Virus record (IMG/VR): IMGVR_UViG_3300029459_000073
Span: 1-7,806 of that record
DNA length: 7,806 nucleotides
Reading direction: 5' to 3' (one strand)
Source of the DNA: a virus
Taxonomy: Duplodnaviria; Heunggongvirae; Uroviricota; Caudoviricetes
Positions 3,312 through 7,321 of the stretch are shown here, piece by piece (positions within the stretch are counted from its first letter, which is position 1; the number at the start of each line of letters is the position of its first letter). The position numbers and the translations under genes were made by a program. Below the pieces are notes generated by a model, which made no database searches, was not told the DNA's origin, and saw nothing but the letters and a program-made list of their open reading frames with translations.

Positions 3312-3315
3312 GTCC

Positions 3316-3341
3316 ATAAGAAAGCCCCTCCGGAGAGGGGC
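3316..3341 (-). terminator. Candidate rho-independent terminator, minus-strand orientation, back-to-back with the 3284-3311 terminator
   Basis: Stem GCCCCTC (3324-3330) pairs with GAGGGGC (3335-3341) around loop CGGA. On the minus strand it is followed by TTTCTTAT (complement of 3323-3316). The U-tract is interrupted, so this is a moderate call. Confidence 0.4.
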
Positions 3342-3660
3342 TGGAGAGTGGCGCTATGTGCCATTGCATGGTGCCGGGTGCCTCCCGGTGAGTTCAGTAT
3401 CAGCACCTGAACCCGCACAGAAAGGATAAGGGTCGGTGACAAAACACCAGTTGCTGATTGCCCCTCCGCACAGGGGGATTCACCATGCCAGTTTCTTTTA
3501 ACAAACTCCCCGCAAACCAGACAACAGTCAACCGCCTGAATTGTGAGGTATTTAAAAATTTCAACGGGTAACTGATACCCTGCTAATCGCCTGATGCTTT
3601 CTTTTTCAGCAACGGGAAAGCAACAACCACCACACCCACCAGCCGCCCATTTACCACAAA

Positions 3661-5035: not shown

Positions 5036-6082
5036 TTACCCAAGCACGCCAGTTGCAAAGGCGTGATCAAGAAAACGAAAAATTAAATCAACCTGAGAAC
5101 CATGCTTTTCTTCGAACGCCAGAGGATCCGCATGAAGCTCGTTGTGATGCTCCCGACACAGCGGTAGCGTGAAAATATCGTGAGATTTTGTCCCCATTCC
5201 GCCCTGACCATGACCAATCAGGTGATGGGGATCGTCGGCTGGCTTACCACAACACGCACACGGCTGTGTCTTCACCCAGCGTGTGTATTTCTCGTTAACC
5301 CAGCGGCGACGTTTAGGTCGTTTCATGAAAGATTCCGGAGACTCAGGATCAACGGCAATGCTGACCACCGTCTTTTCCTGTGGTGGGTTCTGTTGCTGGT
5401 GGGCGTGAGNNNNNNNNNNNTTTTTTGTGCGCTGTTTCAGTATGCTGGTGGCGGTCTGCTCTCCCGGTACGATGTCGCTTTCACGGTACATTGAGCGGAT
5501 TTTTTCCGCACGCAACCCCAGCGAACGACGTAATACCGCTTCCGGTAGCGCGTCCGCCACCTGATTGTGGACCGCCCACCAGGATAATTCAGCCAGCGAT
5601 AATTCCCGCTCCTGTGTGCCATTCATTGCGTGACGAATGACGTCAATCATCCATGCTGACAAGTTTTGGTGAGCAAGTTGCTCAAGTGATTCGGAGGTCT
5701 GGTCACGCAACTGGTTGTCGCAGTGCCAGCACAACACCATTGCGCCGGTACCATAACGGTGAATGACGGTTTCGCTGTGATGATAATCGCCGTGTGGCCA
5801 CTGGCAGGATTTAATATGGCGCAACAGCCAGTCAGACAATGCACCAGCACCACCAGCAGCACGAATCACCCGTGCGTTACTGAAAAACGGCAGCAATGTT
5901 TTGTCTTCCACCAGCGGCTGGCGAACGGCAGGAACGACCCCGGACGGCAGATTACGCATGCTTTTCGGTTCCGGCTCCACCAGTACCCGGGTATTGTGGA
6001 ATACCGGCATGGATTCACGGCCCGGCTTAACGATCACCAGCCCGAGTTCCGGTACCAGAACAGGTCGAAGTAATACTCGCAC
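5036..6082 (-). CDS. ydfU: DUF968-family prophage protein (YdfU-like) with a C-terminal Cys/His HNH-like motif, 348 aa, interrupted by an N-run
   Basis: Size and position (between the Rem-like ORF and rusA/Q) match the K-12 Qin ydfU as I recall it. The C-terminus carries CACCGKPADDPHHLIGHG...LPLCREHHNELH, a CxxC...HH...CxxHH arrangement. GTG start at 6082 with strong GGAGGT 3 nt upstream; an alternative ATG is at 6010. The internal N-run at 5410-5420 makes the frame across it unverified. Confidence 0.8.
   Translation of the reverse strand: MRVLLRPVLVPELGLVIVKPGRESMPVFHNTRVLVEPEPKSMRNLPSGVVPAVRQPLVEDKTLLPFFSNARVIRAAGGAGALSDWLLRHIKSCQWPHGDYHHSETVIHRYGTGAMVLCWHCDNQLRDQTSESLEQLAHQNLSAWMIDVIRHAMNGTQERELSLAELSWWAVHNQVADALPEAVLRRSLGLRAEKIRSMYRESDIVPGEQTATSILKQRTKXXXXXHAHQQQNPPQEKTVVSIAVDPESPESFMKRPKRRRWVNEKYTRWVKTQPCACCGKPADDPHHLIGHGQGGMGTKSHDIFTLPLCREHHNELHADPLAFEEKHGSQVDLIFRFLDHAFATGVLG
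5410..5420. other. Run of 11 ambiguous bases (N) inside the DUF968 gene
   Basis: Literal n characters in the sequence. Confidence 0.95.
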
Positions 6083-6362: not shown

Positions 6363-6434
6363 CGGTTGTCTCTGCTGGCGCAGCAGGTGCCAGTTGTTCA
6401 GGCTGGCGTGCGAATTGTAAACCAGAATGCCAGG

Positions 6435-6461
6435 AAAAAACAAAACCCGCCGAAGCGGGTT
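6435..6461 (-). terminator. Strong rho-independent terminator ending the hok transcription unit
   Basis: On the minus strand: 7-bp stem AACCCGC/GCGGGTT with a UUCG tetraloop (loop complement of 6451-6454), followed by TTGTTTTTTCC (complement of 6443-6433). Confidence 0.6.
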
Positions 6462-6500
6462 ACGTGCGGGTGCGTTGAGGATGCCTGACACATCAGAGGT

Positions 6501-6522
6501 GGCGAGGGATTTCTCCCTCGCC
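6501..6522 (-). other. Perfect 9-bp stem-loop 8 nt downstream of the hok stop codon (candidate 3' mRNA structural element)
   Basis: GGCGAGGGA (6501-6509) pairs with TCCCTCGCC (6514-6522) around a 4-nt loop. No U-tract follows on either strand, so it is not called a terminator. Confidence 0.4.
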
Positions 6523-6529
6523 GGGTCTC

Positions 6530-6685
6530 TTACTCCTCAGGTTCGTAAACTGTGAAGACAGCGACCTCCGTCTGGCCGGTTCGGATTCGTACCTCGCAGA
6601 GGTCTTTCCTCGTTACCAGTGCCGTCACTATGACGGTTAAACAGATGACGATCAGGGCGATTAACATCGCCTTTTGCTGCTTCAT
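6530..6685 (-). CDS. hokD: Hok/Gef-family type I toxin (small membrane toxin), 51 aa, HokD/RelF-like
   Basis: MKQQKAMLIALIVICLTVIVTALVTRKDLCEVRIRTGQTEVAVFTVYEPEE has the Hok hallmark (hydrophobic helix, LTRK.LCE.R motif, conserved Cys) and closely matches my recollection of K-12 HokD (RelF). RBS AAGGAG about 9 nt upstream of the ATG at 6685. The track ORF 6530..6742 adds a 19-codon in-frame upstream extension. Confidence 0.85.
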   Translation of the reverse strand: MKQQKAMLIALIVICLTVIVTALVTRKDLCEVRIRTGQTEVAVFTVYEPEE

Positions 6686-6861
6686 AGCCTGCTTCTCCTT
6701 GCCTTTCGGCACGTAAGAGGCTAACCTACATGTGTCTAGCATGAAATTGGCCTCAGATTAATGTTAAGCGTCTTGCAGGACGCGTAATGTTAACTGGGGC
6801 TTTTCTCTATCTGCCTTTTGGTATTCATGCCTGAGACAGATAGCCTCAAGCACCCGCAGCA

Positions 6862-6889
6862 ATTCTACTTAACTATCCTTTCCCCGCAA
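6862..6889 (-). promoter_or_regulatory. Candidate sigma70 promoter for the hok mRNA
   Basis: On the minus strand: -35 TTGCGG (complement of 6889-6884), 16-nt spacer, -10 TAGAAT (complement of 6867-6862). This predicts a leader of roughly 170 nt, comparable to known hok mRNAs. By-eye match only. Confidence 0.3.
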
Positions 6890-6976
6890 ATCGTTTTTAT
6901 CCCCAGCGACAAATCGAATACACCACCAGCGCCACCGCCATTGCGATCCCTACCGTTGTGAATGCCTCAGGCCAGG

Positions 6977-7321
6977 TCATCGTAAAACATCCTCTGCGCT
7001 TATCAGTCCGTTTCGCTTCAGGTAGTCCATCGCCTTACCCGGCAATTTACAGTCCGGCTTCGTTTTCCTCAGTTGCCAGGTTAACTGCTTTACCAGCATG
7101 GTTAACTCGTCGACCAGACGCTGATGTCCCACTGGTTTGTATTCATGCAATTTACCGGCTGGCTCTGCTGCCAGCGATGCCAGTGCGATTTCCAGAACAG
7201 CAATATCTATCTTATATGTGCGGATGATGTCATGGTCGATTGTGCCCGGTATGCACAGTCTCTGTGCTTCAATAGTCTCCTCTGCGTGAGCTATTAACTG
7301 CTCTCTGGTAAAAGTGGTCAT
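6977..7321 (-). CDS. Hypothetical protein, 114 aa, second gene of a two-gene cassette upstream of hok
   Basis: ORF track 6977..7321 ([114 protein letters not shown]). Its ATG overlaps the stop of the upstream gene by 4 bp (ATGA at 7318-7321), which suggests translational coupling. No family recognised. Confidence 0.5.

Follow-up and report, generated by a model that had tools for sequence, protein, structure and literature searches.

Does the hok gene in this prophage stretch keep its own regulatory RNA elements, or is it a remnant of the kind found at hokD of Escherichia coli K-12? A preliminary description of the stretch, 7,806 nt of a Caudoviricetes virus record (IMG/VR IMGVR_UViG_3300029459_000073; the whole of it is called the window here), had proposed that this copy retains such elements, unlike K-12 hokD, and had pointed to a promoter with a long leader, an in-frame upstream ATG, a palindrome flanked by direct repeats and a Sok-like antisense RNA. 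In our analysis the region from about 6889 to 6441 on the minus strand is very probably a complete hok/mok/sok type I toxin-antitoxin cassette, and we are equally confident that it is a close allele of hokW-sokW from the Stx phages 933W and Sp5. The cassette is an ordinary, already known module in a lambda-like prophage; what may be new is limited to a hypervariable Sok tail and an apex-extended Sok hairpin.

The genomic neighbours match the nin/Q region of lambda-like prophages, with a 114-aa ORF upstream and, downstream, a rem-like ORF, DUF968 (ydfU-like), RusA and the Q antiterminator. Elsewhere in the window, an STnc100 RNA match was recorded at 3312-3517 (Rfam). Of 5426 complete E. coli genomes, 3807 contain the stretch 6430-6960 at a coverage of at least 80%, and PGAP names the gene hokD in them; the 98.3%-identical chromosomal match in E. 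coli NMBU-W12E19 bears the same PGAP label. As a locus it matters little, being routinely annotated, widespread in E. coli and represented by a 93.5%-identical copy that has been characterised experimentally.

The hok mRNA and its leader

The following elements were assigned to the hok-sense strand:

6530..6685, minus strand: hok toxin gene, 51 aa plus stop, with a Shine-Dalgarno (SD) sequence AGGAG at 6699-6695
6530..6742, minus strand: mok frame, 70 codons, ATG at 6742-6740, in frame with hok and extending it by 19 codons
6862..6889, minus strand: predicted hok/mok promoter, read from the sequence, with -35 TTGCGG (6889-6884), a 16-nt spacer and -10 TAGAAT (6867-6862)
6441..6855, minus strand: predicted full-length hok mRNA, about 415 nt, from a start near G6855 to the intrinsic terminator
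6844..6855, minus strand: predicted tac (translational activator) element GGGUGCUUGAGG at the mRNA 5' end, paired with fbi in the fold
6468..6480, minus strand: predicted fbi (fold-back inhibitory) element CCUCAACGCACCC in the 3' UTR, complementary to tac with one bulged C
6749..6800, minus strand: predicted hairpin sequestering the mok RBS, the complement of the Sok hairpin, with the anti-SD GCCCCAG (6800-6794) against CUGAGGC
6502..6521, minus strand: 3' UTR stem-loop GCGAGGGAGAAAUCCCUCGC, paired in the full-length fold
6444..6461, minus strand: intrinsic terminator AACCCGCTTCGGCGGGTT followed by a T-run, called by the terminator scan; homology between loci ends just after it

The hok ORF matched Pfam HOK_GEF (PF01848) over the full 42-position profile, with E = 6.3e-22 and 77.3 bits against a cut-off of 22. 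The 19-codon in-frame extension from an ATG at 6742, given in the preliminary description, was confirmed, and this ATG is the mok start codon: it is preceded by GAGG 8 nt upstream, the 70-codon ORF continues through hok, and both length and position are those of the mokW annotated in 933W. Every full-length homologue has the mok ATG, followed by an ORF that never closes before the hok start; its frame relative to hok varies. Most alleles have the in-frame 70-codon form, 12 loci carry a 19-codon mok ORF whose stop overlaps the hok start, and in 2 loci mok lies in the +1 frame with 67-68 codons. An ORF that is always open to the hok start in a variable frame agrees with published work in which the act of translating mok counts, not the Mok product (PMC9841398).

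The promoter at 6889-6862 and the leader of about 170 nt proposed in the preliminary description also held: the hexamers are present, TAGAAT is nearly invariant in about 80 related loci (the region upstream of the -35 is mosaic), and the first RF01794 base is G6855, 7 nt after the -10, which gives 170 nt from G6855 to the hok ATG at 6685. A covariance search, proposed earlier as a check together with leader folding and alignment to hok/sok of plasmid R1 and to hokA-hokE, returned a full-length RF01794 match on the leader at 6855-6680 (Rfam, cmscan; 120.7 bits, E = 7e-28, model positions 1-157). The gathering score of this family is 59, the match is on the hok-sense strand, and its score exceeds those of K-12 hokC, hokB and hokE. 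The family is named "sok", and its 157-nt model matches the hok-sense leader in every locus tested, K-12 included, while K-12 sokC is annotated on the strand opposite the RF01794 match. The match thus identifies a hok/sok leader and not the strand of the Sok transcript. Matches below threshold were recorded for isrK (27.8 bits), ceN48 and anti-hemB.

Hundreds of prophages share this leader at 93-98% conservation, and its promoter, mok ATG, sok promoter, tac and fbi remain intact in them; TAGAAT, tac, fbi, the mok ATG and the hairpin are conserved across about 80 phage loci and 23 genome stretches. Homology between loci starts at the promoter and stops just past the terminator, which marks the cassette as a discrete module. 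The predicted full-length mRNA folds at -171.7 kcal/mol (z = -8.2), and the pairing of tac GGGUGCUUGAGG with fbi CCUCAACGCACCC appears in both its minimum-energy and its centroid fold. In homologues tac is invariant or shows only wobble-compatible changes; the commonest fbi variant falls at the bulged C and another preserves a G·U pair. When the leader is folded in isolation, tac forms a local hairpin (alignment columns 3-13/19-29). The mok SD GAGG (6754-6751) is paired to GCCCCAG (6800-6794) in the predicted hairpin at 6749-6800, whose pairs in alignment columns 56-62/100-106 are conserved in 57 leaders; by analogy, this hairpin corresponds to the mok SD/ucb stem of R1 (PMC9841398). By the same analogy, the stem-loop at 6521-6502 is likely to be the protective 3' hairpin of the processed, truncated hok mRNA (PMC9841398).

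RNAalifold analysis of 57 distinct leaders found a double change in one of 34 predicted pairs, with a covariation term of -0.78. The homologues are too similar for compensatory covariation, so that the structures rest on conservation and thermodynamics, and covariation in these 57 leaders speaks neither for nor against them.

Homology to R1 hok/sok and to hokW-sokW suggests how the cassette would work. Transcription from 6889-6862 would yield a stable mRNA of about 415 nt in which tac at the 5' end pairs with fbi at the 3' end, giving a closed RNA with the mok RBS hidden in the 6800-6749 hairpin. Slow 3' trimming would take off fbi and let the leader refold, whereupon mok (ATG 6742) would become translatable, with hok translation coupled to it. 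Sok (6734-6804, plus strand), a small antisense RNA of low stability, would be transcribed from a promoter of its own within the leader; its 15-nt single-stranded tail would pair across the mok start codon and RNase III would cut the Sok-mRNA duplex, so that no toxin would be made as long as Sok is produced. If Sok synthesis stopped, for example on prophage loss or induction, Hok would be made and the inner membrane damaged. The underlying tac/fbi/ucb/dcb mechanism has been described for R1 (PMC9841398).

The predicted Sok RNA and its terminator hairpin

The elements belonging to Sok overlap the mok start and the leader hairpin:

6699..6727, plus strand: predicted sok promoter, with -35 TTGCCT (6699-6704), a 17-nt spacer and -10 TAACCT (6722-6727)
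6734..6804, plus strand: predicted Sok RNA, 71 nt, comprising a 15-nt single-stranded 5' tail (6734-6748), a hairpin (6749-6800) and UUUU
6759-6767 and 6785-6793, no strand assigned: direct repeats TAATGTTAA, 100% identical, the predicted middle-stem arms of the Sok hairpin
6768..6783, no strand assigned: imperfect palindrome GCGTCTTGCAGGACGC with one mismatch, the predicted apex extension of the Sok/Sok-target hairpin
6729..6748, no strand assigned: hypervariable patch of 20 nt, the Sok 5' tail being the complement of the mok start region

The Sok coordinates were transferred from the sokW misc_RNA of AF125520 through a gap-free alignment. A Sok-like RNA on the plus strand had been suggested at around 6690-6830; homology to sokW supports the strand and the RNA, and places its predicted span at 6734-6804 instead. 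The sok promoter and terminator, which had not been found by eye, can now be assigned, as predictions, to 6699-6727 and to the hairpin plus UUUU at 6749-6804. The promoter stretch is identical in the window and 933W. In a promoter-less sokW construct, primers YO-421/YO-422 replace AGGTTA, which unmasked toxicity (PMC8621323). The AGGTTA replaced by YO-421 is the complement of TAACCT, and the window has the identical sequence; sharing the mutated site supports the assignment of the promoter to 6699-6727 and of the start to G6734. More generally, the predicted Sok elements are identical or nearly identical to the experimentally verified sokW, although simple scans call neither promoter nor terminator. 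A sigma-70 consensus and terminator scan of 6380-7000 gave zero promoters, flagging neither the hok/mok promoter, missed because of its weak -35, nor the sok promoter, and its sole terminator was that of the hok mRNA, the Sok hairpin being missed because its stem is interrupted. With weak -35 hexamers in both promoters and an interrupted Sok stem, these assignments rest on homology and conservation, and the start sites and the Sok 3' end in the window are predictions transferred by homology.

The predicted Sok RNA folds at -28.7 kcal/mol (z = -5.1), and none of 200 shuffles folds as well. Its hairpin at 6749-6800 has 23 bp, interrupted, with a lower stem GGCCUCAG/CUGGGGCU, then the middle stem, then the apex, and is nearly invariant among homologues (pi 0.023). 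Both the palindrome at 6768-6783 and the repeats at 6759-6767 and 6785-6793 are present as the preliminary description gave them. In the folding model they are not a separate element; palindrome and flanking repeats are one structure, the long Sok terminator hairpin. Folding of the Sok strand joins UUAAUGUUA to UAAUGUUAA in 9 bp, among them U·G and G·U pairs, since the repeated motif is self-complementary once G·U is allowed, and the apex is GCGUCU-UGCA-GGACGC, that is, 6 bp with a UGCA loop. The hok strand has C/A mismatches at the repeat positions and forms a weaker hairpin (-17.6 kcal/mol, z = -5.6), so that perfect pairing belongs to the Sok strand.

Relative to the RF01794 consensus the palindrome appears as a 16-nt insertion (cmscan). 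In an alignment with other loci, the window, 933W, E. coli NMBU-W12E19 and one plasmid-borne "hokD" carry the apex; K-12 hokC, hokB and hokE lack it, as do the two plasmid hok loci compared (IncF and IncHI, with divergent leaders). A wider set of 84 sequences, made up of these four apex carriers and 80 IMG/VR loci, contained it 76 times. With one genome taken per species, the extension turned up in Escherichia coli, E. albertii, E. ruysiae, Shigella and seven Kluyvera species. The Kluyvera hok coding sequence has diverged and the hairpin outside the search pattern is nearly unchanged; the apex itself was set by that pattern, and its identity in Kluyvera is not independent evidence. Among the loci compared, only the prophage hokW/"hokD" lineage, in Escherichia, Shigella and Kluyvera, has this apex extension of 18-20 nt. 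With it the Sok helix would reach about 23 bp, a length that may adjust how fast RNase III turns Sok over or how far Sok depends on Hfq; such tuning may in turn set the rapid loss of SokW on prophage induction.

Alternative explanations for the leader and the palindrome

The locus could instead be a decayed, unregulated remnant of the hokD type, as in the Qin prophage of K-12, with a leader that is leftover relE sequence or junk. The PGAP label of the nearest homologues would suit this, as would the identity of at least 98% that the window shares with K-12 hokD (relF) across the hok SD, coding sequence, 3' UTR, fbi and terminator; downstream neighbours are also common to both, a rem-like ORF followed by ydfU/DUF968. 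The K-12 alignment begins only at about 6701, however, some 17 nt upstream of the hok ATG, and beyond that point K-12 has relE/relBE fused, with neither hok promoter nor tac, and with no mok start, sok promoter or Sok. Here the window has some 155 nt of leader with a full-length RF01794 match, whereas the K-12 hokD locus gives zero RF01794 match (hokC, hokB, hokE and 933W do match), and the high conservation of the prophage leaders, with all elements intact, argues against decay as well. Nor is the window of the relBE-hokD fusion type, having a full leader and, as upstream neighbour, a 114-aa hypothetical ORF and not relE. The RF01794 match together with the break in K-12 homology refutes the relE-remnant reading, which the preliminary description had named as part of the outcome that would count against it, and we regard a decayed locus as barely credible. 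Since K-12 homology ends at about 6701 and K-12 has no RF01794 match, the window is, on this sequence comparison, the intact form of the truncated K-12 hokD, and its leader is no relE remnant; it would show K-12 hokD before relBE replaced the leader.

Two other readings concern the palindrome. That two perfect 9-nt direct repeats surround a 17-nt segment, which cmscan reports as a 16-nt insertion against the family consensus and which hokB, hokC, hokE and the divergent-leader plasmid hok loci lack, could be taken as the footprint of a small insertion without a role, a target-site duplication left by a mobile-element remnant or miniature palindromic element. Yet both repeat copies align to RF01794 stem positions, so that neither is extra, and they pair together over 9 bp through G·U wobbles in the Sok strand. 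Without the apex, Sok would have a stem of just 6-7 bp, far below the length of those in SokB, SokC and SokE, and the apex is near-identical from Escherichia to Kluyvera despite hok divergence, with the qualification that the search pattern set the Kluyvera apex. An empty-site allele, with one copy of TTAACATTA and no palindrome, was not found in IMG/VR, which lends no support to an origin by insertion and target-site duplication. A transposon footprint was rejected on these grounds (stem positions, mutual pairing, no empty site in IMG/VR) and is improbable. A very well conserved 16-bp near-palindrome might also be a DNA operator at which a phage or host regulator switches sok or hok on prophage induction, and no mechanism accounts so far for the RecA-dependent loss of sokW after mitomycin C treatment (PMC8621323). 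This element, however, overlaps neither promoter, since the predicted start of sok is 34 nt and that of hok about 72 nt upstream of it; G·U pairs on the Sok strand against A/C mismatches on the hok strand point to selection on RNA, and by-eye inspection of the window sequence revealed no LexA-like or other known operator motif. Its position off both promoters and the strand asymmetry led us to reject the operator, which we consider still more improbable than the insertion footprint. The Sok terminator hairpin is thus the reading we retain for palindrome and repeats.

The Sok tail and comparison with known systems

Among 62 distinct full-length transcripts, nucleotide diversity (pi) in the patch at 6729-6748 was 0.32. 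Over the same 62 transcripts it was 0.010 in the hok coding sequence, 0.016 at hok third codon positions and 0.023 in the Sok hairpin. Diversity in the patch is some 30 times that of the hok coding sequence, between identical flanks, and the patch comprises at least 11 Sok tail alleles with a median of 7 mismatches in 15 positions between alleles.

One and the same DNA encodes Sok and its target, so any change keeps their complementarity and alters specificity. The Sok-tail patch may therefore behave like a specificity cassette and may be under diversifying selection. If so, the Soks of co-resident prophages would not cross-protect, a situation analogous to plasmid incompatibility; orthogonal tail alleles could then account for the coexistence in one genome of several prophages with hok, none of which would cancel the addiction module of another. 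In five genomes with multiple copies the tails were all different in four and included an identical pair in one, a comparison that is not statistically decisive given the allele frequencies. We found no description of Sok-tail allelism or cross-talk in prophage hok loci in the literature checked. The joint reading, in which the tail acts as a specificity cassette and the apex as a tuning element, is possibly undescribed; we offer it tentatively and think it rather doubtful as a whole.

The closest known system is hokW-sokW of Sp5/933W, where Takada et al. (2021, PMC8621323) found HokW to be toxic and sokW, transcribed from its own promoter, to neutralise it. Neutralisation depends partly on RNase III and Hfq, and northern blots detected both hokW and sokW RNAs, with sokW gone after prophage induction (PMC8621323). 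Against activity of the copy in the window, Pedersen and Gerdes reported no post-segregational killing by the chromosomal hok loci that they tested (cited in bioRxiv 10.1101/2025.08.07.668861), so that its activity is no more than likely. 933W (AF125520) has 93.5% nucleotide identity to the window over 476 nt, and its record annotates mokW (213 nt), hokW (156 nt) and sokW, a 71-nt plus-strand antisense RNA. Like the window, it has a 70-codon in-frame mok, a 51-aa Hok and an identical sok promoter, and its 71-nt Sok forms the same hairpin with the apex palindrome, one loop base differing. The two differ in the Sok 5' tail/mok start patch, where they carry different alleles (GUCUAGCAUGAAAUU against GUUCAGCAUGGAUUG), and at the 3' end, where 933W is without the terminator sequence of the window; they also differ in position, close to the right end of the linear phage record in 933W and within the nin region in the window.

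Plasmid R1 differs in having hok and mok in different frames. By the RF01794 consensus, its type of Sok hairpin is without the apex extension. The architecture of R1 hok/sok (parB) is otherwise the same, with a Hok/Gef toxin, an overlapping mok and Sok over the mok start, and it shares the tac/fbi long-range pairing and 3' processing logic (PMC9841398), although HokW, the close homologue of the window's toxin, is only 44% identical to R1 Hok (PMC8621323). The chromosomal K-12 loci hokC(gef)/mokC/sokC, hokB/sokB and hokE/sokE, which were compared along with the plasmid loci and which place the apex in the hokW/"hokD" lineage only, all give full-length RF01794 matches on the hok-sense strand; K-12 mokC is likewise an in-frame extension, of 69 codons. 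SokB, SokC and SokE each consist of a 5' tail, a hairpin and a U-tail, and as annotated they measure 57-60 nt, with stems of 14-17 bp at -21.6 to -24.6 kcal/mol, whereas the predicted Sok of the window, at 71 nt, about 23 bp and -28.7 kcal/mol, is longer because of its apex extension.

Variation at the Sok tail and in the mok frame

The 5' tail of the predicted antisense RNA Sok, which is complementary to the region around the mok start, lies in a hypervariable patch of 20 nt (6729-6748 of the window) with a nucleotide diversity of 0.32, versus 0.010 for the hok coding sequence. The flanks are identical, whereas the patch itself occurs as at least 11 alleles, every one of which keeps the mok ATG. 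In four of the five genomes carrying multiple hok/sok copies the tails were all different, a comparison that is not statistically decisive given the allele frequencies. The patch may act as a specificity determinant limiting cross-protection among co-resident prophage hok/sok copies.

Near-identical loci also differed in the frame of mok relative to hok (window 6742-6683; compared loci L012, L031 and L008). Three arrangements were observed: an in-frame mok of 70 codons in the majority of loci, the window included; a 19-codon ORF stopping on the hok start in 12 loci; and a mok of 67-68 codons in the +1 frame.

Leader exchange and tandem loci

Two IMG/VR loci, L054 and L067, encode a Hok 98% identical to that of the window, yet their leader differs, measuring 154 nt versus the usual 176-177 nt, lacking the lineage-specific apex palindrome and carrying a different hairpin sequence. 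Because a near-identical Hok is here joined to a different leader, leader and toxin gene recombine independently.

A tandem arrangement was found in Enterobacteriaceae bacterium MGYG-HGUT-00110 (L102), where two hok/sok loci, both with the apex and with different Sok tail alleles, are separated by 562 nt:

L102 773-947: first tandem hok/sok locus, with the second about 560 nt further on

The E. coli-type hok locus was additionally encountered under other host names. PP818812.1 (hit H26), titled 'Actinobacillus phage vB_Apl-pPE4', holds a 96.2%-identical copy, and short contigs bearing the locus occur in several non-enterobacterial assemblies (Xanthomonas pisi, and Veillonella and Haemophilus MAGs); these cases probably reflect host mis-assignment or contamination. 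Within the window itself, ORF translations show runs of X at about 5400-5420, which suggests that the DUF968/ydfU-like gene is broken by a short run of N (bases masked or unknown).

RNA family matches and a possible recoding motif

Two further elements, one outside hok and one within it, were located on the minus strand:

3312-3517, minus strand: strong Rfam match to STnc100 (RF02076; 143 bits, E = 1.5e-32)
about 6547-6544, minus strand: UACG motif, formed by hok codon Tyr47 (UAC) and the following G

Comparison with genome stretch L002, which holds the homologous prophage, places the STnc100 match downstream of Q, the antiterminator gene. The 3' UTR of the hok mRNA, comprising a stem-loop and terminator (6440-6521, minus strand), gave a below-threshold match to isrK, a Salmonella Gifsy-1 sRNA (27.8 bits, E = 0.006; gathering score 50), reflecting either chance or distant kinship among the 3' ends of prophage nin regions.

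The UACG motif falls on the penultimate Tyr codon of hok, and homologues share it; for the equivalent sites in the hokB, hokC, hokD and hokE mRNAs, adenosine-to-inosine recoding by TadA has been reported (bioRxiv 10.1101/2025.08.07.668861).
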